A stretch of 63,221 nucleotides of DNA, the filler included, from Reclinomonas americana ATCC 50394 (taxonomy: Eukaryota): NCBI GenBank assembly GCA_048213135.1. It is 11 parts of 11 records of this genome, joined end to end, with 100 filler letters (N's around TTAATTAATTAA, not from the genome) between each part and the next. Parts side by side here need not be neighbours in the genome. Positions count along the whole stretch, not along the records: positions 35,319 to 40,143 come from AFZH01020388.1; positions 40,244 to 43,014 come from AFZH01020389.1; 9 more parts are not named here. One strand, 5' to 3'. The notes below the pieces were generated by a model. The model had not been told where the DNA came from, made no database searches, and was given only the letters and a program-made list of their open reading frames with translations. This document shows, piece after piece, positions 13,739-58,111 of this stretch (positions are counted from its first letter, which is position 1; every line of letters starts with the position of its first letter). Made by a program: the position numbers and the translations under genes.

Positions 13739-13781
<43 letters not shown>

Positions 13782-16700: not shown

Positions 16701-19700
16701 GTCAGAGAACCCACGCAAATGAACGAGTCAGAAAGCACATGCACATGAGCGAGTCAGAGAGCACACGCAAATGAAAACACAAGCAAATGAGCGAGTCAGA
16801 GCACATGCATGTGAGAGAGACATAAGTTCTCCCATGTCGCCCTCACCAGACACTGCATTCGAGCCGGCATGGTTCAGCAGCTTCACACGATTCGCATCAC
16901 GAGTGGCCATCAGCACGGCCAGCAACTGCTCGCCGGTGGGACTCAGTGCGCCAGTCTCGCCATCCCACACAAAATCGGCCATGAATGAAATCACAGAGGG
17001 CTGCCCACATCAACGAAGTGAGCAAGAAACACCGAGGCTGTTCTTTTGGGATGACAATGCAACTTCAGAAGTGAGCAAGCGGTGCCCCAGTAATGACTTG
17101 CCAAGCTTCTCATCGTGCACCGTTTGATTCTGTGATGGAAACAAAGTGAGCACACAAGAATGAGAAGAAAGCAGCACGAGTCATGCGCACCCGCGATGGC
17201 GATGGAGGAACGCTGGATCGATCGCCCAGTACGCTGGTGCCCCACTCGCGGAGCGACTCGATGCAGCTCTCTGCTGCAAAGTACTCCATGAATGAGCGGT
17301 GCTGGAAGCGCAAGTAATCGGTGGTGCCTTGCAACAGAGCCTGCGTTTTGACAAAGGTCAGCCAACAATCACACAAATACTCTTCCTCTCTCACTTCCCC
17401 TGCATCCCGTCGCTCACCGCACGACACAGCAATTGCATGCGCTCCACATCGGGCCAGCAGTGCACGGCCCAGACCACTCGTGAGTCCTGTGCGGCACGCA
17501 GGTAGAGCGGCGCCACTTCTGCCGTGTCGGGAGACGATTGCGCTTGCTCCATCCGCCCAATGTCGGCATCGGCCTGATGATGGAGGAGAGAAGGTGTGAG
17601 GACTTAAGGTGCTCGGACCACTCACGAAGAACAGCGCGTACCGTTCGCTGCACCGCCGACACGCCAATCTTGCACATTTCGGCGGCGAGGCTCACACAAA
17701 ACGCATGCAGCACCGAGTGAAAATCGGAGTCGGGTGGGAAGGTCTGCGATCATGCAGTGAGCAGGAGAGCACACAGAATGAAACAACGCTCTCTCTGCCT
17801 CACCCTTTGAAAATCGGCTGGTGACTCCTTGACGTGGAAACCAAACCACCACTCGACAAAAGCGCCATAAATGTCGGCGCGTGACAGGTTGCGATGCTCG
17901 AGATACGGTACCGTGGCGCCCAGTTGCTGGAGAGTGTGCACGCTCATGTTCAAAAGCAGCGGCTGTGCGGGATGATTCGGTGAGTGCATATTGAGGCAAA
18001 GGGGGAACGAGAATCACCGCACCGTTCCCATGTGGTCGTCGAGGCCCGGTACTTCCAGCATCTCCCGCTTAAAGTCGTTCCAGTTGGACTCGAGCAATCT
18101 GTACAGCAGCAGAGTGAGAAAATGACAAAGATGACGAGCACTAGAAGGGCTCCACCAAACTCTTGCAGAAAATTATCAATCTGATTGGTGACCATTGGTC
18201 GCAGCACGCACAGCGACGTCGGTGCCAGTCGAGACCACCAATCGTCGTGCAACGCCAGCCACTCGCGGCGACACGAGGTGACCAACAATGCGTTCTTGAC
18301 GGACTATTCGCACAAGCACAGTGAACACAAGAGGGCACGTGAGGGGGAGACTACGTGTTGGCGCAACTTGCAGCTGGTGGAACTCGGCAATGTTGAGGAG
18401 AGGAATGCTCCCGCGACCGGCAGCGTCTGGTGGCATCGGCAGCTCATCGTAGCCGTCGAGCAGGAGGAGCAGCGACCATCCGTGCGATGTCAGTTGACTT
18501 GCCTATGTGTAGAATGGTCAACAGAGGGCCGACCAGAACTCCACACAACACACTCACTCACTCACTAAGACACACACGCACACACAGACTTTCTCTCTCT
18601 CTTCCTCACTCCCTCGCACGCACAGGTGGTCGACGGGCTGACATGCATTGCAACAACAAAATGAAGACGCACCTCGCTCTCCGTGAGACCATGCTGATTG
18701 AGCAGGTAGGGCAGGAGCTGACCGCGCTGCGACATGATCCGGAAGGGAACTGTGGCGAGGCGGACGTACAGCGGCAGAGTGCGCCCGAGCTCCCACGCCT
18801 TCACCACCATGCCGCGCATGAGCGTGCTCTTGCCGCTGCCGGACCAGCCGACGAGGAGCATGTTCTGCAGAAGGCAAAGGAGGTCAGGAAGAAGGAGGAC
18901 GGAGAAAGGGGAAGGGGAGGCAGAGGGGAGGAAGGAGAGGTGAGGGGAAGGAGAAAAAGGTAGAGGGATGAAGGCACAGGGAGAAGGAGGGAAGGCGGAG
19001 AAAGACACGAACGTGGAGAGTGACACGAACGTGGAGAGTGACACGAACGCGGAGAGTGACACGAACGTGGAGAGTGACACGAACGTGGAGAGTGACACGA
19101 ACGTGGAGAGTGACACGAACGTGGAGAGTGACACGAACATGGAGAGTGACACGAACTTGGAGAGTGACACGAACAGGGAGAGTGACACGAACAGGGAGAG
19201 TGACACGAACAGGGAGAGTGACACGAACAGGGAGAGTGACACAAACGTGACGGATAACACGAAGGCGGAGAATGACACGAACTTGGAGAGTGACACGAAC
19301 GTGGAGAGTGACACGAACGTGGAGAGTGACAACGAAGGCGGCGAGTGACACGAACGTGGAGAGTGAAACGAAGGCGGAGAGTGACACGCAGGTGGAGAGT
19401 GACACAAACGTGGAGAGTGACACGATGGTGGAGAGACACGAACTTGGAAAATAACACGCAGGTGGAGAGTGACACAAGGTGGAGAGTGACATGAAGGTGG
19501 AGAGGGACACAAACGTGGAGAATGACTCGAACGTGGAGAGTGACACGCATGTGGAGAGTCACACGAATGTGGAAAGTGACACGAGTTGCGCAGTTCAATC
19601 TCCCTTCGCCCCCCACCTGCGCCCCGCAAGAGACTCACCGTATCAGCCTGCTTTTTCCTTGAAATAAAGTCAGCGACGCACTCATTGACGGGAATCGCAG

Positions 19701-19915
19701 TCGCCGGCCGCGTATTGTACTCATCCAGACTAGCGTGTGCCAGCAACGGAACCTGCACACAGAAAAACATAAGACCACTTTCCCCACTCTCCTCCTTCTC
19801 CTTCTCCTCTCCACGCAACTGTGCACCCAAACGCCACACGATTCAACTCGGTCGTGTCCGCCTGCAACGCCGCCTGCAGCGCACTCGCATGCAAACTCGC
19901 CAGCTTCTCCGCCAA
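12783..19915 (-). CDS. NACHT NTPase - pentapeptide repeat - 14x WD40 protein (NLR/STAND-like); 5' end lost in the linker
   Basis: Walker A LLVGWSGSGKST (~18830) and Walker B LLLLDGYDE (~18450). Also VLVTSCR, QPLLL, IYGAFVEWW and the winged-helix motif YLRFQHRSFMEYFAAE. These are followed by pentapeptide-like FAGQNLSHIRVPYASLSTALMSASVLRDVDFTGVDLSAACL and 14 WD40 repeats (GHxxxVxSVAFSPDG...SxDxTVRVW). Predicted stop at 12783. Confidence 0.9.
19003..19585. repeat. Intronic 18-bp minisatellite (GTGACACGAACGTGGAGA)n, ~30 copies, in the NACHT gene
   Basis: Directly visible tandem array that degenerates toward 19585. Confidence 0.95.
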
Positions 19916-27482: not shown

Positions 27483-32331
<4,849 letters not shown>

Positions 32332-32764: not shown

Positions 32765-34105
32765 GCTTCACGTCACCTCTCATCTCTTCTCTCGACTCTC
32801 GCTTCTCCTTGACATCGTCTGTGCAACGTGGCTCTCACTGCACGCAACAACGCTGCAGAAACTCACTTGACTTCTCAAGCCAAGCAACAGGACTCTCACT
32901 GCAGTTCCTCTCGCTGGCTAGCTGCGTCGCTCACAATCTCTCATATCACTGATTGTCTTACTGGCTTTCCTCAGTCTCCCAACTCCTTCGTCTACCTCCC
33001 TTCACTGCCTTCCTCTCCTGTATACTACATCTCAGCTCCGTCACTCCTGTCTCATTTCTTCTCGCTTGCTTTGTCATCCTATCTTCACCGTCTTCCCTCT
33101 TGTATTCTACAACTCAGTTCCCTCATTGCTTGCCGCTTGCTGCTGTCAGCAACCCACTCCCTCCCTCGTCTTCTCTCGTTTCTTGTCGCTTCCTCGCAAA
33201 TCCTTCCTCTTCTCCTCTTCCTCCTTCCTCTTCCCCCCTCCCTCTCCGTCAACGCAACTCGGAACGACTCTCCATCCTTGGACTTCAGGCGCTCGCAGAT
33301 ACCCATGTACCGGTCGAAATGCTCCAGGAAGTTGTCTTCCAGCACCTCGGCGAACTCCGGGTAGCTGCCGCCCACCGCCGACTCCACCATGCCGCACACG
33401 GCCACACGAATCGTCTCGTGGGCGATGCAGTCGCTGTAGCGGCGAGCCTCGCCCGGAGATGATTCCTGGAGGAGGGATGTGTGAGAAAGATCTCTCGAAT
33501 CAGAAACAAGAGATTTTCCTCTCTCTTTCTCTCTTTCTCTCTGTCTCTTTGTCTCTCTCTCTCTCTGCCTCATTCTCTCTCTGCCCCTTTCTCTCTGCCT
33601 CTTTCTCTCTCTCCCTCTCTCTCTCTTCTCTTCTCTCTCGTGCTCACCATCTCGTACCCGGGCTCGTTGTGGTACGGCGTCGGGTTCATAATCATGCTCT
33701 GGATAGCGTGCAACACACTGGCCGTCGAGTGGATGGGCGACCACTGTGGGCCCTCCCATGTGCCGAGCAGACTCAGGCACACTGCGTGGGTGGTGGAGAG
33801 AAGTGAGAAGACAAGAGGAGGAGGGGGAAGAGAGGGAGAGGGAAGAGCTGACCCTTGCCGCAAGAGTCTGTGAGGGGGGAGATGGAAGAGGTGAGTGAAG
33901 GTGGTGGAGATGGGAGACGAGGGAAATGGGGATATGACGCAACACAAGTTCGGGTTGAAGCGCACGGCACCGCCGTCGGTGGTCAGCCTGGGGAGGGCGA
34001 AAGAGGAGGGTGAGTGAGGTGGGGGGATGAGAGACGGAGCAAGCGGGAGGCGCAACAGCTGCACAGCCGGTGGCTTGAACGGGTAGTTGGACGGGTATGT
34101 GAAGT
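32405..34105 (-). CDS. UBE2Z: Ubiquitin-conjugating enzyme E2 Z-like (USE1); 5' exons missing
   Basis: Spliced reading [51 protein letters not shown]...PYHNEPGYE...[13 protein letters not shown]...DPFGE...FNF. The catalytic Cys and the UBE2Z-type HETIRVAV and DPFGE motifs are present. Confidence 0.88.
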
Positions 34106-34162
34106 CTGCGTGCGAAAAGAGAGGAGATGTAAGAAAGTCGTATAAAGCAATAGTGAAAACTC

Positions 34163-35116
34163 TGCAGGAGGCACTCAGCAGGAGACACACAGCAGGAGAC
34201 ACTCAGCAGGAGACACTCAGCAGGAGACACATAGCAGGAGACACACAGCTGGAGACACCCAGCTGGAGACACTCTGCAGGAGGCACTCAGCACGAGGCAC
34301 TCAGCAGCACGAGACGCTCAGCACAAGACACTCAGCAGGAGACACACAGCAGGAGACACTCAGTTGGAGATAGTCAGCACGAGGCACACAGCAGGAGATA
34401 CTCAGCACGAGGCACTCAGCACGAGGCACACAGCAGGAGACACACAGCAGGAGACGCTCAGCACGAGACACTCAGAGCAGGAGACACTCAGCAGGAGACA
34501 CTCAGCAGGAGGCACAAAGCAGGAGGCACAAAGCAGGAGACACTCAGCAGGAGATAGTCAGCAGGAGACACACAGCAGGAGATACTCAGCACGAGACACA
34601 CAGCAGGAGACACACAGCGGAGACACTCAGCAGGAGACACTCAGCAGGAGACACTCAGCAGGAGGCACGCAGCAGGAGGCACGCAGCAGGAGACATTCAG
34701 CAGGAGACATTCAGCAGGAGACATTCAGCAGGAGACATTCAGCAGGAGATACTCAGCAGGAGATACTCAGCAGGAGGCACGCAGCAGCACGCACTCAGCA
34801 GGAGACACACAGCAGGAGACGCTCAGCACGAGACACTCAGCACGAGACACTCAGCACGAGACACTCAGCACGAGACACTCAGCACGAGACACTCTGCAGG
34901 AGACACTCAGCACGAGACACTCAGCAGGAGACACTCAGCAGGAGACACACAGCAAAAGACACACAGCAGGAGACACACAGCAGAAGACACATAGCAGGAG
35001 GCACGCAGCACGAGACACTCAGCACGAGACACTCTGCAGGAGACACTCAGCACGAGACACTCAGCACGAGACACTCAGCTGGAGACACGCAGCAGGAGAC
35101 ACTCAGCAGGAGGCAC
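34163..35116. repeat. Intronic 14-bp minisatellite (CACTCAGCAGGAGA)n, roughly 65-70 copies
   Basis: Directly visible tandem array upstream of the first recovered UBE2Z exon. Confidence 0.95.
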
Positions 35117-36263: not shown

Positions 36264-38021
36264 ATGGTCTCAAATCCGGCGGGACCCGCCAGACAATTCC
36301 CGTCGGCGTTGGCTTACTTTCTTGTCGGATTTGGGATTTGCTTCGTTTTTGTCCGCGTCAACACGCGTTGGTTGTGTGCTCGCAGGTGCGTGCTTCGTGT
36401 TGCGCGCATTGTTTACTTCCTCTGCTCACGCGTCTTGTGTGTACGTGCACGTGGTACATGTGCAGAGACGCATGTGCATGCAGTAATGAGGTTTGCGCGT
36501 GGCGAGTGATTGTTCTGCTTGCCGTCTTCGGCCCTTTATATGTACATGACATGTATGTGTGTATGTCGTGTGTGCGTGTGCGTTTGATAGTTCCGGGCCC
36601 GGGCGAAGGAAAGCTTGCGACATTGCAAGAAACGGAAGTGTGCGACAATCGATTGAGGCACTCGATGAAGTGGTGCGACGTGAGGGCCCTGACGCCCTGC
36701 TCAGTCGGGACCACATGGACTCGCTTGGCGGCTCGGCATTCTTTGTTGCTGCGTGCGCAGGCCGTGTGGAAGTGCTGCAGCACTTGATGGAGAACAGTGG
36801 CGTTGGCGCGGAACTTGTCGAGCGAGTCGACGACCGCGGTCGGACGCCGCTGATGGGTGCTGCTGCAGAGGGTCAGCAGCAAGTGGTGAGGTGGCTGCTT
36901 GCAGACGAGAGACGATGCCCGCGGCATGTGGCATTGGCAGTCTCCGGTGACCGCGACACGGAGACATATCCCAAGTCGACGGCGTTACACTATGCTGCCG
37001 TGAAAGGCCACCTCAGGATAGTGGAACTGCTCGTCACCAGCTTTTTCGAACTCGTCTCCATGGTCGACAACAGCGGCAAGACAGCGGCAGAGGTGGCACG
37101 CGATCGCAACAAGCAGGATGTTGCTCGGTACCTGTCGCAAGCACGTGCGCCGAGGCCTGTGGTGCTACCAGGTGAGTTTCCTCTGTCGTGTGCGCATCAC
37201 GGGACGCACTTACTCATGCGAGTTCTGTGGGTGAACTATCATTGTGGTGCGCACAGCTGTGAGGTATGGTGATCGGTGTGTTGCAGTTGAAGAGGGAGCG
37301 CTCCGTTACCTCAATTGATTTGTGTGTTGCACAACATGCAGCGCCCCTCCTCCCCCTCCTCAGCAAGAGAGGAAGAAAGCGTGGTTGATGGCCGAGGAGG
37401 GCGACATTGACGCACTGCGCAAGTTGAATGCGGATGAGAGCCAGGACAACCTGTTGCGCATACTGCTGGAAGAAAAAGACGGTTTCGGTGGCAATGCATT
37501 CTACGTTGCTGCTGCCCACGGTCAGCTGCCTGTGTTGGAATATCTGTGGGACAAAAGCGGATGTCGTCTGCAACTCGCCTCAGCGGTCAACAACTTTGGG
37601 TGGACACCACTGATGATCGCTGCCAAAAACGGGCATGAGAGTGTGGTCAACTGGCTTCTCGCACATGAGCTACGATGTCCAGCGGACAGGGTTCTGGCTG
37701 TCACCAACGGCCGTGACGAATTCCCGGGATCTTCGGCTCTGCATTTCGCTGCCAAGAACGCATTTGTTGTTAACGCTGCGCGTCAGATGACAGATTCTCA
37801 GCTGATTGTGGAACGCCTCCTCCGAGTACCCCACAGCTTAGACCTCATGCGGTTGACCAACAGCAACGGGAAAACGGCAGCGCAATGGGCGCGCGAGGTG
37901 GGCAAGGACACTGTGGCAGAGTTTCTGGACCGGACGCTGCTGCAACGCGAAGAAGAACAACGGCAGCAGCAGCAGCAGCAGCAACAACAACAACAACAGC
38001 TACAACTTCAGCAGCAGCAGC

Positions 38022-38091
<70 letters not shown>

Positions 38092-38899
38092 GCTACAACT
38101 TCAGCAGCAGCAGCAACAACAACAACACCAACAGCCAGTGCTGCGAAGTCCTCCACCTTCTCCGTCATCTCCACCAAGTGCGTCGCCCTTGTTCCCGCAC
38201 TCTGTGTGGCAATTGTGCTCATCACCTTCTTGTACAAGTAGTGGCTTCGAATTCTGTGGTACCGGTGGTACCAGCTGCCGCATATCCCCCTCGCCAGGAG
38301 GTGACCACAATGCTTCGATCCATTTCAGTGTCCCCCGTCACAAGTACTCACCCCTCGGGCGTCTCCCAGATCATGGTTGACGCACGTGCGCTGGCCGACA
38401 AGGACGCACTCGTCGCTCAGCTTCAGCGCGATCTTGCGGCAGCGCATCAGGAGCGAGAGGAGCAGCAACGAATGTGGGAACGTCAGCGACAAGACCATGA
38501 GGAAATTGTCGACGAGGCGCTTGGCCGCCTTGTGACTGCGCAGCAGCAGCTGGCAGGACAAGAGCGGGTTGCCGCTGACGCCCAGTCACAACTGGCAGCT
38601 GAACGGCAGCGATCTGAGGAACTTGCCGCTGAAGTCGAGCGTTTGCAGGGCGAGATCGAGCGCCGCCGACGTGTAAGAGAGCCCAATATAGTGCTGCGAG
38701 TGTAATGTACGTATGCCAACTTTCGCGTTTGCTCCCACAATGTGTCAGCGAGAGTTTGCGGGCCTGGGCGCTCTTTGATGTCGACTCGGCGGATGCCTGC
38801 TCAGCGCGCTGCTGGTGCATGACGCTGTTCGATACGAACCATCCGACCGCGGGCGCTGCATTGGACGAAATGCAGCGCCTGCATGAGGGCACTTGGTGA
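36264..38899 (+). CDS. Ankyrin-repeat protein with a duplicated ankyrin module, a polyQ tract and a C-terminal coiled coil (ends approximate)
   Basis: Module 1: GGSAFFVAACAGRVEVLQHL / GRTPLMGAAAEG / STALHYAAVKGH / GKTAAEVA. Module 2: GGNAFYVAAAHG / GWTPLMIAAKNGH / SSALHFAAKN / GKTAAQWA. These are followed by ~50 Gln (37963-38133) and the heptad-rich LVAQLQRDL...LAAEVERLQGEIERRR. Confidence 0.85.
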
Positions 38900-39131
38900 C
38901 TTCTCGCGTGAGCTGCAACTGACAGCGCGGACCTGACTCCACCTGCTCATTTTTGTGCGAGCCGTCGTAGTTTGTTTCTCTTAGCATTGTGAATACACAT
39001 GGACATGAAGTTGTCGCAATCGTTTGTGCGCGGGGCAGTGTGTGATGCTGGCGCGATTCCGATGTGAACGACCAGAGATACGTCGGAGCAACATTGAGAT
39101 ATTCATGCAATTGAATTCGCCCCTGGCACCC

Positions 39132-42100
39132 TCATCGCCCCACCGCCACAATCGTGTGCAACCCATACCCATCACCCGCATCGAGTCCACCCACTCGCAT
39201 GCGGCACACCGGACACACACCATTCGTTGCCACCACTTGCTCTGCGCATTGCTTGCAGAGCACCTCGTGCGTGCAAGGAACAAGTCTCGTCTCGCGCGGC
39301 AGCCGGTCGCACGCCATGCACGACCGCCGGGACGCCAAAACCGTGAGGTCGACCAGCTCGGAAGCCACTTGCTGTACCGTGGGTCGTCGAGCTGGACGGC
39401 CATCCAGGCATCTGCGAAGGTGCAAAGTCATTCCACATCTCCGTTGCTCGTTTCACTCACGCTCTCTCTCTCACGCACACAGCGAAAGAGAACAGAAGCA
39501 TCTATGTCTTACGATCCTGCGCCTGCTGGAGATTTGCTCTCCACCACACATACAGCTGGGCGACGGGATGGGACGAGGAGCAGAGAGAAGGAGAGTTGTG
39601 GTGGTGAAGAGGAGAAGGAACACGAGACCGGCATGCACCCACGGGTCAGTGTCGCCAATAGAGATAGTGTGATTACCACAAAATCTGCATCTTTCTTCTT
39701 CCTCCTTCCCCTTGTTCAGCAAGGTCCCCTCCAACACTTGATTGCTCTCACTTGTGTTCTTCTCCTTGTATTGCTCCTCCTCTTTATTTCTCCTTCTTTT
39801 CCTTCTCCTGCTTCTCCTTCAGTTTCGTTATTCCTCGCCTTCCTCACTTCTCTTCTTCCTCTTTCTCCTTGCTCACCACCTTCCCCTCCAGACCACTTGA
39901 TTGCTCTCGCTTGTGCTTTTTCCTTGTCTGCTCCACTTCTGCCTCCTTTTCTCCTTCTTGCCCTTCCCCAGCTTCTCCTTCAATTTCGTTATTTCTCGCC
40001 TTCCTCACTTCTCTTCTTCCTCTTTCTCTTAGCCTTTCCCTCCACCACCCGACTGTTCCCACTTGTGCTCTTCTCCTCGTATTGCTCTTCCGTCCAATCT
40101 GCCCTTCTCTCTCCCTTTCCTCTCTCTCTCTCTCTCTCTCTCTNNNNNNNNNNNNNNNNNNNNNNNNNNNNNNNNNNNNNNNNNNNNTTAATTAATTAAN
40201 NNNNNNNNNNNNNNNNNNNNNNNNNNNNNNNNNNNNNNNNNNNTCTCTTTGGTCAGTTCCATTCGTTCACATAAGCTGCCTCGCCACCTAATCCTCCCGA
40301 TGCACCGTGCCTTTCCCTTAACCTTCCCGCTACAAACCTAAGCGCCAGCCGCACAAGGCCTCCACACACAGTCGCCGGCCACGGACGACCGACTCGCACA
40401 TCGGCAAGCTCCACGGCCGCACGCACCAGTGCCTGCCCGCCGCTGCCCTCGTCGTCGTCGTCCTCCGCACTCTCCACCAACTCCTCCAACGACTCCAAGC
40501 GCCGATGCACCTCCTCGATCGGCAGTCCGCTCAACACCTGCAGCACAATCAACCCCAGCGTGAACACGTCCGAGCTCGACCGCAGCTGTGCGTGCATCGC
40601 CTTGGGGTCGGTGTACTTTGGGTCGCTCATGAAGGGGACCGTGGCGCGGCTCTGGGAAGCGCAGAGGAGTGAGATTGTGAGGAGAAGCGAGAGGGAGAGC
40701 GAGATGGGAATGCTGGAAGCAGCGAGAGGGAGAAGAGATGGGAATGCTGGAAGCAACGAGAGGAACGGAGCAGCGAGAGGGAGCGGGAGCAGCGAGAGGG
40801 AGCGGGAGCAGCGAGAGGGAGCGGGAGCAGCGAGAGGGAGCGGGAGCAGCGAGAGGGAGTGGGAGCAGCGAGAGGGAGTGGGAGCAGCGACACGGGCGCC
40901 ATCCTTCACCCACGATTCGTTCACCAGTCTTCTTCTGACCATTTGTACTGCTTCTCGCTTCCCCAGCCCCTCTCGCTTCCCTCTCTCGTCACTCCCTCTC
41001 GCCTCTTCCCCTGTCTTTATCGCTCTTGGTGTGCTAGCGCGTCACTGTCTCCCACTCACCCCCTCCATGCGGAACCAGAATGCAACACCGGCATCCGCCA
41101 AGAACGGCACTCCATTGTGGCTGAACCACACCTTCGCAGGCGTGAGGTCACCGTGGATGACTGCAATCGATAAGAAAGTCAGAGATTGCGAGTAAACACA
41201 GCAAACTCAGACACGCCACCATACCATTCTGTTTGGTAACGCAAGCGAAGAGGACGACAACACCGACCATTGAGCACACAAACGAACAGAGAACATACAA
41301 ACGCAGAAACACTCACGAGCCTGCAATGAGAGAGACGTTAGATAGACGCACAATCAAACGGCAACCTGCGAAAGCACGGCACGCAACTTGTGCACCGCAG
41401 CCATGACCTCGGAACACCGAAGCAAGCACGACATGCGCTCCTCAATGGACATTACCGACAGTCCGCGTTCCTCCCACTGCAAAAGTCGGTGCTCCAGATT
41501 GTGTTCACTGCGTGAGTAAACAAGGAGGAAGAATGAGTGTCACACAGAACGCGACAGGAACAGCGTTTCTCTCTTGCACACACTCAACATTACTTCCACG
41601 CTGTCGAACTGTACATCTGTCTCTTTCTCACGCTATTTTGCCTCTCCAGTTTATCCCCAGTCTCTCCCTCCGGCTGTCTCGTTACTCGTACGCCACAACT
41701 CTCCGATTCCCACACCAGTCGCGCCCGTTCATTCTGTCTCTTTCTCTCACTGTGATTGCCTCCCCATTACTGTCTCCAGTCTCTCTTTGTCGTTGCTTTG
41801 AGCCCAAAGTTTCACCTCACCTCCGTCTTGTATTCGCTCTGCTCTGTCTCCTCTTCTCTCCTCGATTTCCTTTCCATTCTCTCTTCTCTCTTTGAGATCC
41901 ACTGATTCTCATCTCGTCACTTCGCTTATTGCTTTTCTAAACTCACAAATCTCATCACTCTTCTCTCCCCCTTGCTCCTATTTTCTCCCCTTTCTTTTCT
42001 CCCATCCTTTCCCCTCCATCCCGTCCCTTCCTAGTCGCACCTCAAGCTCTCCACCACCACACAACGACTGCCGTCACTCGCCTCGCCGTACCCAAGCAGC

Positions 42101-42455
42101 GGCACCATGCCCACCACGCTCACCGCTTTGAGCTTCTCCACCTGACAAGATTGGTGAGAACCTGCGCCACCACTCATCACACCCACACACAGACCTCGCG
42201 GGAGAACGACTCGACGCACCACGGCAGCTCACTGCCGTACACCTTCACATCCACATCTCGCTCCGCCCACCGTCCGCGGTAGATCTTGGCCAGACCACTG
42301 CCGTCGAGCTGATTCGCGAAATTGTTGCTCATGGCCACCACTTGCTCCCACGAGAACGCCGTCAGCGGAACTGCATCGCGCACCAATCAAACAGAGTGGA
42401 CCGCAGGATTCTCGCTGTAATTCTTGCTTCCTCTCTTCCAGTTCCTCCACGAAGT
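39132..42455 (-). CDS. Coiled coil - IRAK/Pelle/RLK-like protein kinase (probably a pseudokinase) - C-terminal RING-HC fusion; spans the linker at 40144-40243; 5' end missing
   Basis: FSWEQVVAMSNNFANQLDGSGLAKIYRG, VDVKVY, MVPLLGYG, VIHGDLTPAKV, LADAGVA, YTDPK, SDVFTLGLIVLQVLSG, WPATVCGGLVRLAL|RCLDGRPARRPTVQQVASEL. Then CMAC...LVPCTHEVLCKQCA...CPVCR. Confidence 0.82.
40768..40890. repeat. Intronic 18-bp minisatellite (GAGCAGCGAGAGGGAGCG-like)n
   Basis: About 6-7 tandem copies within the kinase-RING gene. Confidence 0.85.
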
Positions 42456-43224
42456 CTCGACCTCTTGATATCCTGTCTCTTTCTCTCTCGCTCCATCCCT
42501 TTTCACACTGATTTCATCCCTTCCTTGTCGTCTTTCGTCCTCTCACTCTCACGTTCACAGAGTGCGTCTCCTTCTCTTCCATTTCACCCCAGTTCGTCCC
42601 ATCCCCATCTCGTCGCCAATTTCATCTTCTCTCACGTAACCAGCGTCGCTTGCAATGTACGTCTCCATCTCCTTGCATCCCCCCTGTCGCCCCATACCCC
42701 TCTCCCACAGTTCAAATCGCTCCCGTTAGTATTCCATCCTCTCGACCACTCACAATGGATGCATCCTTCCCCTTCCATCTCTCAGTCTCGTCTCCAACCC
42801 TCTTTGCCTTCTTCGCCTCCCTTCTTCTTCAGTTTTTCATACCCTCACTGCTGCTGGTGTCACGCAGACTGCGTCGCCTTCTCGTTCGCGTCCCATCCCT
42901 TTCTCACACTGATCACATCCCTTCCTTGTCGTCTTTCGTCCTCTCACCCTCATGTTGACAGCGTCGCACAGAGTGTGTCTCCTTTTCCATGTCACTCCCT
43001 CTCCTCTCCTCTCCNNNNNNNNNNNNNNNNNNNNNNNNNNNNNNNNNNNNNNNNNNNNTTAATTAATTAANNNNNNNNNNNNNNNNNNNNNNNNNNNNNN
43101 NNNNNNNNNNNNNNCTCTCTCCTCTCTCTCTCTCTCCTTCTCCTTCCCCTTCTTCTTCCCTTCTCCTTCTTCCCCTTCTCCTTCTCCTTTGCCACTCCCT
43201 CTCACTCCCCCTCCTCCCACACAG

Positions 43225-43622
43225 AATGGGCGCCTCGTCTTCCAACAACACCAGCGCCTCTGTGCATGTTGCGTCTGCTCTCTCTGTGTTGTCACTCCAC
43301 AAACCAGTCTGACACGCGCTCTCTTGGTGCACGCAGGCCACAGTCATGGGCACGGTATGTGCTGTCTGCTCTGCTTTTTGTCGTGTCCATGGTTGCTCAC
43401 TGTTTCCCTTTCTCACTCACAGCGCAACGATGTTATGCATCATCACTGATTTCTCACTGCTGGTTGTTTGTTGCGTTGCTCATTACTTCTTCTTTCGTGT
43501 TGCAGATGAGCGTCGATGGCACGCAGGGATACGATGTGACGGCGACGGAGATGGGCGTGGCGAACACGGTGGATGTGTCGACGCGACAGATGCCGGATGA
43601 GGATACGGGGGCGCATGCTTGA
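43225..43622 (+). CDS. Probable 3' end of a hypothetical spliced gene
   Basis: Polypyrimidine-CAG acceptors at 43224, 43337 and 43506, a GTATGT donor, and a GC-rich final exon. The frame is ambiguous. Confidence 0.3.
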
Positions 43623-43759
43623 GGGATGGAGCGCGGCGTGGAGCTTGTTAAGTCTCTCGTAAACAGAAGCGTAACGAGGAGCTGGGAGGGTGAAGGGGGG
43701 AAGGAGAAGGAAGCGTTGTTTCTCAGCTCGTGTGCGAAATGCTTGTCACCAAGGATCGT

Positions 43760-44400
43760 GCTTGGCGTCCGGTGCATGTCATGACATCGGTCGGCAGAGA
43801 AACTCTTGTTGCTCTCCGTCGCCTGTCGTGCTTTCCAATGGCACACAACGCACTGCCTTGGACCCTTGTCGGCTCGTGCTTGAATTCAACCATCAATCGA
43901 CACAAAAGCTCTTCATCGAGACGTATGGTTAACACCAATCGCCTGTCAATGCTTTGATCGGCAGAGACGATGGACGCTTGTTGGCTTCACCTGCCATGAG
44001 TTCCATCAGCACAAAGCACTTTCTCCAGACGCATGGGTTCGTCTGTCTCCAACGCTTGGCGTCCGTCGCCTGTCAATGCTTTGATCGGCAGAGCTTATCG
44101 TCTCGAACTCTTGTTGGTTCATGCTTGACATCCATCGCCTACAATGCTTTCCATCGACACAAAGCTCCTTCTCAAGACGAATGCTTAACACCAATCGCCT
44201 GTCAGTGCTTCTATCGGCACTAAATGTTTCGGAACACATGTTGTTTTGCGCTTGGCTTCACCTGCCATGAGTTCAATCAGCACAAAGCACTTTCTCCAGC
44301 TGCATGTCTCCAACGCCTGGCGTCCGTCGCCTGTCATGTGTTCCATCGGCACAGAGCACGTGCAACTTTCAGTGTCGGCCCCTGCTTCACCAGTAACATC
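43760..44400. repeat. Degenerate satellite: ~10-11 monomers of 50-80 bp arranged as a ~260-270-bp higher-order 4-mer
   Basis: The core gcttggcgtcc(g/a)tcgcctgtca(a)tgcttt..atcggcaca(g/a)ag recurs. Blocks at 43981 and 44252, and at 44045 and 44306, are near identical. Confidence 0.8.
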
Positions 44401-44541: not shown

Positions 44542-45750
44542 TCAAGCTACACACTCTCCCTTGCTCTCAATTCCACACGAAGCTGATATCTCTCGCTCTT
44601 TAAGCCTCTGCATCAGATGCCGCCTCCTCAAGCTGTGTCTGTTGCATCTCTCACCCTCACTGCTTCTCCAGCGCACCACAAAAAAGCAAATCTCCATCTC
44701 AAGCGCCTCGCGCATGCCATCCAGCTCCCACAAATGCGCCTCGCCCTCGCCACTCGCCGGCGCCGCGCGCACAAAATACACAAAGTGGTAGCCACCTGAT
44801 CGTCGGCACACCTCCGTCTGCCCAATCGCCACCGTGTCGTCGTGCGCCGCATGCGTAAGTGCACTCTTTCTCTCTCTCTTCCTCCCTTGCACCACTTCAG
44901 CATGCTATTTCACACGAAGCAAATCTCCCTCACACCGAAACCTCTCCTGCGATCGCCTCCCCTGTCTCCCTCCCTCCCTCCCTTCTTCCTCCTCTCCCTC
45001 CTCCCTGCAACCTGCACTCCCATCACAACAGCATTGCTTCATGAGCGCTGAAACAAGCACCAAAAAAACATCATCATTTTCTCCAGGTTCCCCTCCTCGC
45101 ACCGCATCACACGCCGCTCGCATTCACCGCCTACACACACAACATCAGAAACACAGACACAGACAGACAGACACGCTCTGCTCTCTCACACGCAACAGAA
45201 GTCAGCGCCGAGTCCTCACTCGCCAGTGGCGTTGCACCAGTGGTCGGTGATGACGGCATCTGCTCCAACTATACACACAAAGAGTCAGACACGCACAGTG
45301 AGAGCGAGAGAGAGCGAGGGAGAAGACGCAACGCGTTCAGCATATGGCTGCAATCACAGACACAAAATATGATGAACGATGTGAGTGAGAGAAGTTTCGC
45401 ATGCGATCAAAAAAATTACGAGAAAAACACGCGCATTGTGTGTCACATTACACACACAGTGCTCTCTCTCTCTCTCACACACACACACTGCGCATGTGTG
45501 TCTGTGTTCTTGTAGTTGCCGTCACATATATATATTGCGTTTGACTGTATGTATGTACTCACATCAGCTGCGGCACAGTCGACAATAGGTCCACCAGAGT
45601 ATGCGGCTCCCATGGTTGAGAGGTGGATTGCGCGCAGAGAGAGCGGGCAGAGAGAGAGAGTTAAACTTCACAGGACGCAGAGTGACGCAGATGGCACCTA
45701 CTGTCTGTTGTGTGGCACAGTGTACGTGCTTGATAGGCGGCGGTGTCTGC
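44542..45750 (-). CDS. Divergent ubiquitin C-terminal hydrolase (peptidase C12, UCHL1/3-like); may be degenerate; ends uncertain
   Basis: QQTVGAICVT (~45680-45710) aligns with the UCH catalytic motif QTIGNSCGT. HAAHDDTVAIGQTE...YHFVYFV...HLWELDGMR matches the UCH H...GQT...HF..LYELDG motifs. The N- and C-terminal parts could not be assembled cleanly. Confidence 0.55.
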
Positions 45751-46259: not shown

Positions 46260-47631
46260 ATGTCGTATCGCGTGCATGAGATTCGCATACGCGATCGCCT
46301 CCTCAGTGTTCCGCGTGGCGTTCTCGGCGCCCTCGGTGAGAACCACCTCACCGAGCTGGTCGATCGAGCAGCTGGTGAGTGAGAGAGAACATTCATCCTC
46401 CTCCTTTACCCTCGCTCACTCGGAACAGATCGCCCCTCGGCGACCTCGGGACCGGCAATCGATCGTGACGGACGACTGGTGCTGCATCGCGATCCGGTGG
46501 CGTTTGAGCTGTTGTTGCAGGTGCTGTACTTTGCGGCGGAGCAGACGTTGCCGCACGCCGGGGCGCACAGCGGACCGTCGTCGTTGCTCGATCACAAGAA
46601 CGATGAGGCGGGGGCGATTGTCAAGTTTATGGTCTCGTGTCACCACTCCTTTGCCGCATGATGCGCATGCAGCTCACCCGATCACTTTCCTTCCCCCCAC
46701 ACACTAGCAATCGACAATGCTGCCATGGCAACGCGATGCGGTGAGCGGTGAGCTGGCCTACTTTCAGTTCCGCGTTCCGTCGACGCTGCTGTCGTCGACG
46801 AGCGATCGCGGCAGGGAATTCACGCCGATGAGTGGCGCCGAAATGTCGGCTCTGCTGTCGAGTGCCCCCGGCGGCCATGGTGCGGCACTGTGCGGGCTCG
46901 ACGTGCGCGAGATGCGCTTGTCGGGCGCTCGCCTCGCGCTCGTGTCGCACACGCTGGCCAACGGCGTGCATCTGCGACGTGCCGCTCTCGCGCAGTGCGT
47001 GGTGGTGGAGAGCGACCTGTCACAGGCCGATTTGCGCGAGGCCACACTGGTGCGGGCCGAGGTGACGGACGCACAGCTCGTGGGCGCCGATCTGCGACAG
47101 GCCAACCTCAACGGCGCCACGCTCACCGACGTCGACCTGTCGGGAGCCAACCTGCGTGGCGCGCACCTCCGCGGCGCTCGCCTGCGCAACTGCACCCTGC
47201 AAGGCGCCGACCTCCGCGACACCGACCTCACCGACGTGATCATGAACGACGTCTCGCTGCTCGACGCCCGCCTCGAGCTCCTCGTCTCCCTGCAAGGCGC
47301 CCAGCTCACCGATTGCCGCCTGCCCGACAACGCCAGCCTCCGCGGTCTCGTACTCAGCGGCACCGTCTTCCACAACGTCGCCATGCCACAGGCCGACCTC
47401 GGAGGCGCCCGACTCGACGCCAGCGACGACGGCATGATCGCCCCTGCGCGATTCACCAACGTCGACCTCAGCAACGCCTCGCTTCTCGACGCCACGCTCA
47501 CCGGCGCCGACTTTATCGACGTCAACCTCTCCGGTGCCCTTCTCGACGCGCATGCCACCGATGAACTTCGCCAGAAGCACGACGGCGGCGCATTGGTCCC
47601 CGCGGACGATGACGAGGAGGACGATTTGTGA
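46260..47631 (+). CDS. BTB/POZ (T1-type) - pentapeptide repeat protein, KCTD9/FIP2-like
   Basis: VHEIRIRDRLLSVPRGVL...DRDGRLVLHRDPVAFELLLQVL...ELAYFQF is T1/BTB-like. It is followed by many A(D/N)Lxx pentapeptides (ADLREATL, ADLRQANLNGATLTDVDLSGANLRGAHL). Stop at 47631; start uncertain. Confidence 0.78.
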
Positions 47632-49320: not shown

Positions 49321-50049
49321 ATGAGCAAGAACGGGTTCTTGACGCCCAAGGCCATTGCCAATCGCATCAAGGTGTGTCTGTTGGTGTTGTTTGCACGTGC
49401 AGTGTAAGAGGCAGTGACTGTGTGTGAGAGGTGACAGTTGCACTTGTCGCGTGGAGCTTGCGTGCTCCCTGCGTGAGTGTGTCTTGCACTCTACTCTCTC
49501 TCTCTCTCTCATACACGTGTATATGTGTGTATAGCAAGGCGAAAGGGGGTCAGTTTGTTCTTGCACCATCAGTCACAATGTGAATCGACCTCTCTCACTC
49601 CTGTTCTCAAGTACACACAGTCAGCAGCTCATCCTGCTCACTCTCCTCTCTTTCTTCGCCCTTGCCCCCTCACTTTCTCTCACTTTCCAGTCACTGTCTC
49701 TCTTGCTCCCTCACTCAGTTGATGAGCAAGTGGTGCTGCATTGCCCTTCGTTCTCTGTTCTCTCGATTGCAGTCTCTCTTCTCTTTCCACCACTCTCACA
49801 TGCATACACAGTCAGTATCTGTTCCTCGTCACTGTCTCTGTTGACCCTCACTCTACTGATGTTCCATTGTGGAGTCTGCAACCCTCGTTCTCTGTTCTCT
49901 CACAGCCTCGTTCTTGATTGCTGTCTCTCTCTTCTCCTCCCTCTCTCGCACACAGTCAACATCTGTTCCTGTTTACTGTCTCTCCCTGCTGATGTTCCAT
50001 TGTGGAGTCTGCAATCACTCGTTCGCAGTTGCTGCTCTCTTCTCTCACT

Positions 50050-50084
<35 letters not shown>

Positions 50085-52092
50085 AGCATCTGTTCCGAAG
50101 TCTGCAACCCCTCGTTCCCTGTTCCTCTTCCCCACCGTCTCTCTTCTCCCCCCTCTTCCTCTCCCTTCTCCCCTCCCTCACATCCTGTTCCTCCGCAGGC
50201 CAAGGGACTCGGAAAGCTGCGATGGTACTGCCAGATGTGCGAGAAGCAGTGCCGAGATGAGAACGGCTTCAAGGTCAGCACTCTTTCCCTCTCCTCCCTC
50301 TACCCTCTCTGTCTGACTGCGGTTCATGCAGTGCCACTGCACGTCGGAGAGCCACATGCGTATGATGGAGCTCTTTGCGCAAAATCCCAATCGCTTCATG
50401 GACCAGTTCTCCAAAGACTTTGAGGCGCACTTTCTCGAAGTGCTCAGTCGGCGGTGTGTACAGCTTGCTTCTTGCCTTCTCCGTTCTTCTGCTCACTTGT
50501 CTTCTTTAGGCACAACGTGTCGCGAGTCAATGCCAACCAAGCGTACCAGGAGTACATTGCCGACAAGGAGCACATCCACATGAACTCCACCGTGTGGACC
50601 ACACTCACCGAATTCGTCAAGTATCTTGGTCGCACCGGCAAGTGTCACGTGGAGGATACGCCCAAAGGCTGGTTCATCACGTGGATTGATCGAGATCCAC
50701 GCGCGATTGCCAAGCAGGTTTGTGTGTAGGAGCAGCTTCTCATTCTCCAGTCAATGCTCATTCCTCCTTCCAGTTCTTGTGCTTTCTCTCTCTCTTTGGG
50801 TTGCTCCCTTCTCTTCCTGTCTTCGATCTCTCTCTTTCTCAAAGCTGCCGGCTTTCCTTCTTCCCTCCTCATTTCCTTTCCTCTTCCGTCTACTTTCCTT
50901 CCGCCTTTACCTCTCATTTCCTCACTCTCACTCTCCTTTCCTTCCTCGCCCTAGCTCTCTCTTTGCAGGTCCCTCCTCCCTTCATCTTCCATCTTGCTCG
51001 CCTTCCCCTTCTCTCTTCATCCACTCCTTTCCTTCCCATCTACTCCCCACCCCTTTCCCCCTCCCCTCATCCTCATCCTCCCTTCCCCTTCTCTCCTCGT
51101 ACGCCCCTTTCTCTCCCTTCCTCCCCCCTTCCCCCTTCTTCTCCCCTTTCCCCCTTCTCTCATCCCCATCCTCTCTTCCCCTTCCCCTTTCCCCAGTCTC
51201 CCCTTCTCCTCACTCTCCCCTGCAGGAAGCACTGGCCAAGAAACAACGCTCCGACATGGACGACTCGGAACGCTCACACAAATTCCTGGAGGCTCAGGTG
51301 GCCGCCGCCACCGCCGCCGCCGCCTCCAGCACCACTCCGAGCGAGCCCGTCGGTCCGCAGGAACTCATTCGCGGCGAAGACGAGGCGCCTCTGGTGCTCG
51401 ACCTCAACCTCACCAAGAAGGAGGAGAAGGCCGACGATGCGGCGGCCATGCCACCACCGCCCTCCATTTTCGGCGAGCCCGAGAAGAGGAAAAAGTCGCG
51501 CAGTAAGCCGGAGACCACGGAGAGCGGCAGCAAGCGTCCGCGCTCGGAGCTGGAGTCGCTGCTGGCCGAGGAGGAGCAGCGACGTGAAAAGTCGAATCGC
51601 AAGGACTACTGGCTGGCCGAGGGCATTGTGGTCAAGTGCACACACAGCAAGCTGGCCGACGGCAAGTATCTCAACAAGAAGGGCGTGGTGCGTCGCGTGC
51701 ACGATCGGTACGTGGGCGAGGTGAGGATGCTCGACTCGGGCGATGTGCTGCGACTCGACCAAGTGCACCTCTCGACGGTGATTCCGGTGAGTGGCGAAGA
51801 TGGATGGAGGGAAGGAGAGGCGATACATGGCTCACTTTTTCCCTCCGTTTGCTGCAGCAAATCGGGCACGAGGTCCTGATTGTCAATGGAGCGTTCCGTG
51901 GATCGACGGCTGTTCTTGAATCTGTTGCGTTTCTCTCTTTTACACCGTATCCTCTGTGTGGCTTACCACCTGCAATGCGTGCAGGTGGACTTTGACAAGT
52001 TCAGTGCGACGCTGCGCATCAACAAGGGCCCGTACAACGGACGAGTGGTGAGCAACATTGTCTATGAGGATTTCTGCAAGATGGCCGAGTGA
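49321..52092 (+). CDS. KIN: DNA/RNA-binding protein KIN17
   Basis: MSKNGFLTPKAIANRIK|AKGLGKLRWYCQMCEKQCRDENGFK|CHCTSESH, EYIADKEHIHMNSTVWTTLTEFVKYLGRTGKC, KDYWLAEGIVVK, LRLDQVHLSTVIP|QIGHEVLIVNGAFRG, YEDFCKMAE*. Confidence 0.97.
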
Positions 52093-53695: not shown

Positions 53696-56045
53696 TTACT
53701 TCTTTCCCGACAGGCACTTGCAGCTGCCGGCGACCGGGGCAAGCTCTGGCGGGTTGGTCGAGAAGACGACGCTCTGCACGCATGCAAGCAAGCCCCACAG
53801 GTACGGGTGAGTGACTGTGGCTCGCATCAGCGCGTAGGTAGGCTCGCCAACTGAGACGCAACATGGCAGCAGAAGACTCGGGCGCCCTGCTTGAAACCGA
53901 AATCGGTGGCCTGCAAATACCGTCGGAAAAAAGAGTGTAAGTCTACGCCTGCAGAGAAAAAGAGGCGGGCACGGACACGACTCACCGCGCAGCCGAACTT
54001 GCCAAAGTAGTTTGACAAGAAGGTGCACGGGGCCACAATCTGCGGCACGAGCATAAGGGACTGTAATTGCAAGTGAAAACTTCCAGCGAAGCATGTTTCG
54101 TACCTTGCCCTTGGCTCCGCCCTTGCCGTGCCCAGCAGGCTTAGGCTTTCCGGGATGACCCTTCTGTTAAACCAGCATGCAAGTAAGCAGCTGCTGTGCA
54201 TGCATTTTGTGCAAATCTGACGTCATGACGACATACCGGTCCGGTCTTGCGTGGCGGACTCTTGGGTCCAGGCTGCGCAGATGGACACATGTTTAGGCTG
54301 AGACGACGCAAGCAGATGAAGCTCTGAACCCCGACTGTACCTTGGTAGGATGGCCGGGCTTGGGCTGCACAGTGAGGTCCATCGATCAGTATACCGCGGT
54401 ATTGCCTTCTGTGTGGCTCACACACCTGCACACACACCTTGTTTCCGTGCGGCTTGGGCTTTCCGGGGTGTCCTTTGGCGGGGTGTCCCTTCTGCGGTAG
54501 CATGCAATGAGGATCCTAGGAGGCTTCGAGTGCGTGGCAAATGCAAGCTTGCAAGAATGTCACTCACCGGACCGGTCTTGCCAGGCGGACTATGCGGTGC
54601 AGGCTGCGGAGACGAATGAGTTCCCAAGAAGCAGGTACGTGGATTTCGGTCTCGTTAAGATGTACCTTGCCAGGCTTGCCATGCGCCGGTTTGGTGGGCT
54701 TGCCGGGCTTGACGGGCTTGCCAGTCGGCTTGCCAGGCTTTCCGGGCTTGCCTGCCGGCTTACCGGGCTTACCAGGATGAGCCGGCTTGCCAGGCTTACC
54801 GGGCTTTCCAGGCTTGTCTGCCGGCTTACCGGGCTTACCGGGCTTGCCTGCCGGCTTGCCTGGCTTGCCGGGCTTACCAGGCTTGTCTGTCGGCTTGCCT
54901 GGCTTTCCGGGCTTGCCTGCCGGCTTGCCGGGCTTTCCAGGCTTACCCGGCTTGCCGGGCTTGCCGGGCTTTCCAGGCTTGCCTGGCTTGTGCTTGTCGT
55001 CCTTGGCCGGCTGTTAGCATGCGCGCGAGTGAGCGTGTGCGCGCAAGTGGACGGTGAGAACTGACGACGTGAACGCGAACCTTGCCCTTCTTCTTGTCAT
55101 CCTTGCTCTTCTTGCCCTTCTTGTCGTCCTTCTTGCCGTCCTTCTTGCCGTCCTTGCTCTTCTTGATCTTGTCGCCCTGATAACGAGCTCGAGTTCAGTC
55201 ACCGGTGCACATCGCAGAGTGGAGGAGAAAGTGCCAAGAACTTTTCACCTTGCTGCTCTTTCCTCGCTTGCGACGACGGGCAGCCTGCATGACAAAGTCA
55301 AATGGCCGACAGACAGAGAGGGAAAGAGGCATGCATGGTCTCTCACCTTGCAGTACTCGAGATCTGCGTGTGAGAGAGAGAGAGACACGATTAGTGTCGG
55401 TGACGAGTGCAGCAGAGTGGAGCGGCACACGAATTCACCCTTGTCGTCGTCGGCAGTCTCCGAAAACCTGAAGTCCTCCTCGTTCTCCTCTTCTTCGTCC
55501 TCCTCATCCTCCTCCTCTTCCTCATCCTCATCGGCATCCTGTTCCTCCTCCTCCTCCTCCTCCTCCACAAACGAGTCTTCCTCCACAAACAAGTCTTCCT
55601 CGTCCTCGTCCTCCTCCTCCTCCTCCTCCTCCTCGTTGTCGATGGTGGCCTCGAGCTCGTCCTCCTCTTCGAATACGTTGTTCTCTTCTTCGTCGCTGAC
55701 GAAGAGGTTGGCATCGTCGAGATCCTCCACTGTGGGCGCGAAACGCATTAGCGCGCGAAAAAAGAAACGCATTGTGCGCGCGAAAAAACGCAGTCAGAAT
55801 AAAACGCACCAATCTGCTGCTGCTCCTCCTGCTTGCTCTCGCTCTCCACCAGCACGTCCTTGACCACCATCTCCTCATCCATGATTTCACCCTCTGCAGC
55901 AAATGCACGCGAAAAAAGGGAGTGAGTGTCGGTTCTCGCGACAGTGGAGCAAGAGGGAGGCAGACGCACGAGCCAAGCTGGCCGCACACGCCACAGCCAG
56001 CAGTGCCAGCAGAAGCGCCAGCAGCGTCACCTTGGAAGGCATCAT
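53696..56045 (-). CDS. Secreted multi-exon precursor: signal peptide - Asp/Glu-rich region - RRRKR - Lys-rich and (PGK)n repeats - His/Pro/Lys exons - short Cys-containing C-terminus
   Basis: [50 protein letters not shown]...; [32 protein letters not shown]. Exon 54666-55010 reads [17 protein letters not shown]..., followed by [18 protein letters not shown] and [25 protein letters not shown]. Likely end [10 protein letters not shown]. Exons have GT-AG boundaries. Confidence 0.8.
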
Positions 56046-57165: not shown

Positions 57166-58111
57166 CGCGTGTTGATGGCCTTTTGTGGTGCTGACCGGGC
57201 ACGCAATGCGCAACCGGAGCTGTATCAGCAACTGTTGGGGCGAGTCGATGCCGAGGTAGACAAGGTTGGACGGGATCAGATTTTCAAGGACCTGCACCGC
57301 ACGCTGCCGGGTGAACTGGAACCCGATCGCTTCGAGTTGCGTCTCTCTCGCGTGGCACACTAGTTTCTCTTGTCTCGCTCGTCTCACGTGTTGGTTGTAT
57401 CAGTGACCTGCAACACGTTCTCGAGGCCTACTACGTCTTCAATCAGCGCGTCGGCTACTGCCAGGGCATGAGTGGAATTGTGGCGTACTTTTTGATCACT
57501 GGCTTCTCGCCGGAGGAGGCGTTCTGGATGCTCGTGCGCCTCATCGATGTCTACTTCCCCGAGTACTTCACGCCAACTTTGCGTGGCGTGCGTATCGACG
57601 TGATGGTCTTCATGGAGCTCATTCGACAAAAGATGCCGCGCGTGTACGAGCGCATGCTACACTGTGGCGTGTGCACCGACATGTTCAGCTACCCGTGGTT
57701 CATGACGTGCTTCACAGCCACATTCCCCGTGGCCTCACTGGAGCACTTTTGGCCGTGGTGCATCTACGAAGGCAGCAAGTTCCTCTTCATGGTGGCACTC
57801 GGCCTGATGAAGAAGTTTGAAGGTTGGTCGGATTCGCGATCCCAAGTTCCTCGTTTGTTCGTGTTTACTCATTATTACGTCGAATGACTGCAGCCGACCT
57901 GCTGGCCTGCTCATCGCTGGAGGACATGCTGTTTGTGTTCCAGAGCATCGGAGGTGACACAATGCTCTTCAAGCGGCCGCCGGATCGTGTGCCGCAGTGG
58001 GACGAGGCTCGTCTCGATCAGGACTTCATCGCCAAGTATGCTCTCTCGTGGGGCATCAAGAGCAAGGAGTTGCAGCGGTTACGCGAGATCGCAGGCGAGA
58101 AGATACCATGA
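57166..58111 (+). CDS. TBC-domain Rab GTPase-activating protein, 3' part
   Basis: Arg finger QIFKDLHRTLP and Gln finger VGYCQGMS, plus EEAFWMLV, YPWFMTCF and EGSKFLFMVALGL. Stop at 58111. Confidence 0.93.

Follow-up and report, generated by a model that had tools for sequence, protein, structure and literature searches.

The window analysed here is a stretch of 63,221 nucleotides from Reclinomonas americana ATCC 50394 (assembly GCA_048213135.1) and consists of 11 pieces of eukaryotic DNA (~55% GC, GT-AG introns) joined by a fixed 100-nt linker (10 copies). Its minus strand, between 42370 and 39132, very probably carries a real, intact and spliced gene whose product would be a diverged member of an IRAK/Pelle/RLK-type kinase-RING family, judging from the gene structure and the encoded motifs. 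The kinase is predicted with good confidence to be inactive, and by analogy with systems of plants and animals the protein is tentatively proposed to be a catalytically dead paralogue modulating active relatives, a plausible but far from assured role.

Six coding exons could be chained in frame and stop-free, giving a predicted protein of ~365 amino acids (AA). All seven modelled introns are of the GT-AG type, the shortest having 53 nt, and the pyrimidine fractions of their acceptors are 0.48-0.81. The first identifiable coding exon (42195..42370; minus strand, as all exons below) encodes the RLK/Pelle N-terminal extension helix, the Gly loop, position 70 (42251-42249), Lys72 of beta3 (42245-42243) and Glu91 of alphaC (42197-42195). 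The exon 42041..42141 comprises the end of alphaC, beta4 and beta5 and has Val (42054-42052) at the gatekeeper position, and the exon 41388..41507 comprises the hinge, alphaD and alphaE. The donor of the latter is ambiguous; 41388 was preferred, and 41383, 41378, 41366 and 41360 likewise keep the frame open. Two probable microexons of 4 nt come next, one at 41317..41320, preceded by a branch-point-like CTAAC and CAG and followed by GTGAGT, and one at 41225..41228, preceded by a pyrimidine tract and CAG and followed by GTATGG. When both are used, H-K-L-N-V-I-H-G-D leads into the catalytic loop of the exon 41060..41160, which contains Asp166 (41149-41147), Asp184 (41095-41093) and the positions 168, 171, 173 and 185, all four of them altered. 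The C-lobe exon (40338..40651) encodes the end of the activation segment with the APE motif, alphaF with Asp220, an acidic insert and alphaH. After the last intron (39412..40337; donor and acceptor in phase 2), which holds the assembly linker 40144-40243, the last exon (39132..39411) encodes subdomain XI with Arg280 (39386-39384), the RING-HC (39320-39201), a short tail and the stop codon.

Donors were enumerated with and without the two 4-nt segments, and 14 in-frame forms resulted, which obtained 63.5-85.4 bits against a profile built from 11 plant RLK domains. The form with both microexons (365 AA, 83.1 bits) is not the top-scoring one (85.4 bits), and was preferred because it uses every strong splice signal and because His-Lys-Leu-Asn-Val-Ile precedes the catalytic His, which is the usual spacing. 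Two such probable 4-nt exons, which the preliminary description of this DNA had not noticed, constitute an annotation trap. The kinase part reaches 83.7 bits on the same profile, compared to 4.4 for the best of 300 shuffles (126 of which were reported by HMMER), whereby the profile is somewhat biased, having been built from proteins retrieved with one exon of this gene. From residue 5 to ~290, protein and profile align collinearly. The GC content at third codon positions (GC3) is 0.76, versus 0.82 in an exon of KIN17 from this window. The read run X1, which is probably DNA, gave one 270-nt contig at 41519-41782 and is uninformative on splicing. All motifs listed in a preliminary description of this DNA, i.e. 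the pre-kinase motif, Gly loop, catalytic loop, DAG, the P+1/APE segment and the C-lobe motifs, were found in place.

The kinase looks and aligns as IRAK/RLK type, which bears out the fold assigned earlier. For the C-lobe exon, the best match in the PDB is human IRAK4 (E 4.8e-6); the best 26 of 49 rows are IRAK4 constructs, hence one protein, and the first kinase after them, PKMYT1, has E 0.11. The sole PDB matches of the first exon are two BAK1 constructs (E 0.57-0.61), which are not significant alone, and two exons, one of them 42041..42141, found no kinase in the PDB. Ahead of the kinase core, FSWEQVVAMSNNF occupies the place of the extension helix and ST motif, with Ser for Thr, and aligns with BAK1 and the plant RLK domains. 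This combination, consensus FSYEELEKAT[D/N]NF, is a hallmark of IRAK/Pelle/RLK kinases and is absent from Raf and Roco kinases (PMC10916322).

Searched against 1.84 billion representatives, the C-lobe exon matched nine proteins at E < 0.001. Six are streptophyte RLK-type multi-kinase proteins, the scores of which are summed over several domains; the other three (P0001, P0004 and P0007), repetitive proteins that are not kinases, were set aside as noise. Neither a RING nor a U-box is among the Pfam families of the nine matches. Searched singly against Pfam, no kinase exon exceeded the cut-off (best: Pkinase, E 0.2). A PDB search with alignment A2 was circular, five of its six rows being plant RLKs, and was not counted. 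In the feature atlas, the C-lobe exon matched PK_Tyr_Ser-Thr clusters at 0.92, but only 141 of 256 features are shared, and the RING exon had no match there. Word-index homologue searches, a weak form of evidence, gave no match for the RING exon (306 candidates) or the C-lobe exon (826 candidates). Metagenome pattern scans returned 574 and 598 matches, none of which was confirmed, and in a viral scan one of 30 matches was a generic RING with 30% identity.

The prediction of inactivity is based on the pattern of retained and altered residues. Lys72, Glu91, His164, Asp166, Asp184, Gly186, the APE Pro, Asp220 and Arg280 are retained. Altered are Gly50 (to Asp), Gly52 (Ser, in the register chosen by both HMMER and MAFFT), Gly55 (Ala), Ala70 (Asp), Arg165 (Gly), Lys168 (Thr), Asn171 (Lys), Leu173 (Trp), Phe185 (Ala) and the APE Glu (Lys). 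Thus, residues of structural importance (His164, APE Pro, Asp220, Arg280) are kept while pocket residues are changed. PMC4718504 assigns binding and catalysis to Gly52, Lys72, Glu91, Asp166, Asn171 and Asp184, and the purine pocket to Val57, Ala70 and Leu173; by this list, non-conservative changes affect 2/6 of the former (Gly52 being register-dependent) and 2/3 of the latter. The same source states that Asn171 is required for catalysis and that DFG contributes to the regulatory spine. Among the 11 plant domains, which include degenerate members and are therefore not a clean active control, position 185 is Phe in 11/11, and neither Trp at 173 nor Asp at 70 occurs in any. The kinase is predicted to be inactive because of the losses at Asn171, Lys168 and the Gly loop, combined with Ala70->Asp, Leu173->Trp and Phe185->Ala. 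The last three were absent from the earlier motif list; that list is otherwise accurate, and the loss of catalysis that it implied is probable. The preliminary description had also overlooked that Lys72, Glu91, Asp166 and Asp184 are present, which qualifies its pseudokinase claim as set out below. Comparable proteins are VRK3, BIR2 and DRIK1 (PMC4718504, PMC7158045), in which the fold is likewise kept, the Gly loop degraded and the adenine pocket filled by bulky residues; unlike here, where occlusion of the pocket is read from sequence, it is shown there by crystal structures.

The RING starts ~20 residues past the subdomain XI Arg and has 8/8 zinc ligands (C-x2-C-x11-C-x-H-x3-C-x2-C-x10-C-x2-C). 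It matches Pfam zf-C3HC4_3 (PF13920) with 45 bits (cut-off 27, E 9e-12), and its best PDB match is the cIAP2 RING (E 6.2e-4), one of 17 solved matches including IDOL/MYLIP, MDM4 and MEX3C. No U-box is among the 11 Pfam families listed for the last exon; the domain is a zinc RING instead, and the C3HC4 assignment of IAP/MIB-like type stands as an IAP/MDM2-like RING-HC. With this type it shares the C-x-H-x3-C spacing, the C-terminal placement and the linchpin Arg; it differs by a longer C-terminal tail and by Ala at the first E2-contact position. There, between the first two Cys and directly before the second, where E2 binding calls for a bulky hydrophobic residue, cIAP2 has Val. By RING spacing, we take this position to be equivalent to Ile26 of BRCA1. 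The exchange I26A removes most of the in vitro E3 activity of BRCA1 (10.1101/2022.10.02.510574). Because of this Ala, which the preliminary description had not mentioned, a weak or partner-dependent ligase activity is likelier than a strong stand-alone ligase. The earlier view of the protein as a ubiquitin ligase is weakened both by the Ala and by plant PUB32, the nearest precedent in function, which showed no auto-ubiquitination. An AlphaFold model computed for the last exon from the single sequence reached a mean pLDDT of 46 and was discarded.

In the mechanism proposed, the kinase fold would be kept as a protein-binding surface without productive ATP-Mg binding, which may have been lost through Asp and Trp in the places of Ala70 and Leu173, Lys in that of the metal-binding Asn171, an eroded Gly loop and a regulatory spine without Phe185. 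The RING would fold, could pair with other RINGs and would recruit an E2 weakly. Through its kinase surface or its RING, the protein may associate with putative active kinase-RING paralogues encoded elsewhere in its genome, and this association would dampen or tune their phosphorylation and ubiquitination output, as PUB32 acts on PUB33 and as proposed for IRAK3 on IRAK4. In Arabidopsis, the RLCK-IXb pseudokinase PUB32, which carries a U-box, lacks kinase as well as auto-ubiquitination activity, but it binds PUB33 and suppresses both of these activities in it (10.64898/2026.02.10.704836); an allosteric negative regulation of IRAK4 by IRAK3 was proposed in PMC7955167. Taken one step further, a headless and doubly disabled paralogue, with a dead kinase and an E2-weak RING, might be the built-in brake on a large cytosolic sensor-IRAK/RLK kinase-RING family, which is doubtful.

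Plant PUB-kinases (PUB-VI/RLCK-IXb), to which the preliminary description had drawn an analogy that stands, have an RLK/Pelle-type kinase followed by a C-terminal E2-recruiting domain, and the same order is found here. The presence of a pseudokinase without detectable auto-ubiquitination that inhibits an active paralogue (PUB32 and PUB33) is in line with the role suggested, and PUB33 is a non-RD kinase, as the kinase-RING protein would be (HGD). Unlike the plant proteins, the protein described here has a RING-HC and not a U-box, no assignable USP domain or coiled coil, and an Asp166 which is missing in the predicted plant pseudokinases; moreover, the host is not a plant, and no close sequence match was found. 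Human IRAK4, the top PDB match for the C-lobe exon, has the N-terminal extension helix in common, and IRAK3 is a precedent for a pseudokinase paralogue with negative regulatory function (PMC7955167, PMC4103033). In contrast to the human IRAKs, there is no death domain here, a RING is fused and the Tyr gatekeeper is gone; IRAK2 and IRAK3 have lost the catalytic Asp which is retained here (PMC7955167, PMC4103033).

Several observations weigh against an inactive IRAK/RLK-type modulator. By the three-residue rule, a pseudokinase has lost at least one of Lys72, Asp166 and Asp184; all three are there, as is Glu91, and the rule would call this kinase active. An alternative register of the Gly loop, shifted by one residue and with a one-residue deletion, retains Gly50 and Gly52, and PMC4718504 cautions against predicting activity from sequence. 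On the side of the RING, the linchpin Arg after the last Cys, a feature of RING E3 ligases (PMC12326332), is present in C-P-V-C-R, and I26A leaves BRCA1 a residual activity with some E2s (10.1101/2022.10.02.510574). Concerning the family, the single PDB match of the catalytic-loop exon is a non-RLK kinase (E 0.28), and the Tyr gatekeeper, described as unique to IRAKs and plant RLKs (PMC4103033), is replaced by the Val named above. In the plant domains having a residue in this column, Tyr is found in 5/9; erosion of the gatekeeper would be expected once a kinase is dead, yet its loss lowers the formal IRAK/RLK membership. No other kinase of this type was found in the window (1569 reading-frame pieces scanned; three of the four hits at E < 1 come from this gene). 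Furthermore, PUB32 was modelled to bind PUB33 via a coiled coil, yet a coiled coil is not assignable here.

The preliminary description had placed such a coiled coil ahead of the kinase. The segment in question, ~42455-42402, comprises 17-18 codons in purine-rich DNA and is readable as a short charged helix, but is probably part of an intron. No Pfam match was found in it. The 13 AG sites preceding it have pyrimidine fractions of 0.07-0.37, compared to 0.59 for the acceptor ending at 42371; it adjoins one copy of a 67-nt repeat, the copies being 88% identical; and its use as an exon requires an intron of 31 nt, versus 53 nt for the shortest one of the gene. Because of the poor acceptors, the adjoining repeat and the 31-nt intron, the segment was rejected as an exon with reasonable confidence. 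The upstream DNA as a whole (42371..43014, minus strand) is intron-like, purine-rich and repeat-bearing and is probably non-coding. The acceptor ending at 42371 calls for a phase-1 upstream exon; none was identifiable in 42371..43014, where five phase-1 ATG-to-GT candidates between 42678 and 42990 are indistinguishable. The earliest in-frame Met is residue 13 (42332, GCCATG context), and a plus-strand gene apparently starts near 43228, past the gap 43015-43114. The head of the gene is either within this gap or absent.

A missing head would also be expected of a remnant turning into a pseudogene, i.e. a duplicate copy whose exons for sensor and coiled coil are gone and on which selection has ceased to act. 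Neither a start codon nor a first exon could be assigned, a short gap at 43015-43114 would leave no space for a head before the opposite gene at ~43228, and a gene with ankyrin repeats and coiled coil, itself without a kinase, adjoins. Set against ~365 codons without stop or frameshift, intact splice signals including those of both microexons, the GC3 given above and an intact RING, such decay is improbable. The other structural doubt concerns the join across the linker, where kinase exons and RING exon could stem from different tandem paralogues with a long stretch missing between them at 40144-40243, since the linker is a fixed 100-nt placeholder that does not give the real gap length. This assembly chimera is very improbable: a GA repeat flanks the linker on both sides, as would result if the assembly broke within a single microsatellite; the phases agree, the C-lobe exon closing alphaH in phase 2 and the last exon opening in phase 2 with the conserved Cys of subdomain XI; and there is no gap at this point in the alignment to the plant RLK profile. 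The join claimed earlier on the continuation of subdomain X into XI thus holds as a predicted junction, and even in a chimera the paralogue would remain a kinase-RING gene.

Two further explanations accept the gene and assign it another biochemistry. An atypical kinase-RING could still be active, at a low rate or free of Mg, if Lys at position 171 stands in for a metal ion. In favour of this, Lys72, Glu91, Asp166 and Asp184 all survive deep divergence, and PMC4718504 describes cation-independent pseudokinases as well as CASK, which is weakly active, whereas the co-occurrence of Ala70->Asp, Leu173->Trp, Phe185->Ala, Lys168->Thr and APE Glu->Lys makes it a poor prospect. Somewhat more credible, though still unlikely, is an active E3 with the pseudokinase as recognition module: the dead kinase would bind a substrate or mimic a kinase that an invader attacks, and the protein bound in this way would be ubiquitinated by the RING. 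Such a ligase would agree with the complete set of eight zinc ligands and the linchpin Arg, with active ligases (cIAP2, IDOL/MYLIP, MEX3C) among the nearest solved RINGs, and with Arabidopsis PUB50, which has a truncated, inactive kinase and autoubiquitinates (10.64898/2026.02.10.704836). Against it stand the Ala at the E2-contact position and the lack of any indication here of a substrate, a pathogen or a guard receptor. Since nothing points to pathogen or guard receptor, the decoy function considered earlier is weakened too, and an immune role is without direct support. The dead paralogue modulating active kinase-RING relatives is therefore kept as the tentative interpretation.

No new kind of system is claimed, as each part and the logic of an inactive paralogue have precedents. 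Already published are a kinase with U-box including an inactive member (plants) and RLK/Pelle kinases outside plants and animals; the latter are known from apicomplexans (PMC10916322), which weakens the novelty of the present case that was suggested earlier. In the literature searched, including the available parts of PMC10463195, PMC6040629, PMC10868138, PMC12757656, PMC2933843, PMC7158045 and PMC5441908, no IRAK/RLK kinase-RING protein of a protist was found, which does not establish absence from print. If the proposal is true, the kinase-plus-ligase design of plant PUB-VI/RLCK-IXb, inactive regulatory member included, reaches a lineage distant from the sampled plants and animals, and the protein would exemplify a probably dead kinase that the Lys/Asp/Asp rule scores as active. 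In the doubtful reading as a built-in brake, the pairing of active kinase and inhibitory pseudokinase would have a third independent origin after animal IRAK4-IRAK3 and plant PUB33-PUB32; with the adenine pocket blocked and the three textbook catalytic residues kept, it would be missed by standard pseudokinase screens.

Tail to tail with the kinase-RING gene lies an ankyrin gene (36550-38900, plus strand) with two ankyrin blocks (Pfam Ank_2, E 1e-19 and 7e-24), polyQ of ~55 codons and a long charged helical segment; there is no kinase to it in the window. Thus, a kinase-less head adjoins a kinase without identifiable head. That the two arose when an inversion broke up an ancestral ankyrin-coiled coil-kinase-RING gene was rejected as quite improbable: the ankyrin gene ends in a last exon of its own, and neither a remnant of a kinase nor a matching repeat could be found. 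On the other side, a small gene (43227-43623, plus strand) has short GT-AG introns, very short exons and a possible start MGASSS, which resembles an N-myristoylation signal. It is followed at 43760-44375 by several families of dispersed direct repeats of 30-60 nt (60-95% identical), possibly a non-coding repeat element. A ubiquitin C-terminal hydrolase-like fragment (44590-44904, minus strand; Peptidase_C12, E 5e-5, which is under the curated cut-off) is located ~2 kb upstream of the kinase-RING gene.

Farther away, a gene at 13400-19850 (minus strand) has many WD40 repeats (WD40, E 1e-92), a Walker-A-like stretch at ~18800-18900 and a short pentapeptide-like repeat, and looks like a NACHT/STAND-WD40 gene, the P-loop piece being without Pfam match. 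A pentapeptide-repeat protein is encoded at 46708-47631 (plus strand, E 1.5e-37), and an open frame of Lys-Pro-Gly repeats at 54564-55013 (minus strand) is collagen-like or of low complexity. Housekeeping-type genes are located at 49535-52000 and 57315-57887 (plus strand) and at 30320-31300 and 33085-34317 (minus strand); they comprise KIN17, a RabGAP-TBC domain and, judged by eye, a WD40 gene of the CstF-50 kind along with a UBE2Z-like E2, for which the frames tried had no Pfam match. The KIN17 exon had 28 matches in 8000 scored candidates, 27 of them with 32-43% identity over at least 95% of the query; the named ones are from animals, a monocot and a green alga, besides one partial match of 54% in Mesostigma. 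This pattern fits a lineage far from the sampled plants and animals. Throughout the window, the longer introns are polarised, with purine-rich 5' and pyrimidine-rich 3' parts, and several assembly linkers lie in GA/CT tracts.

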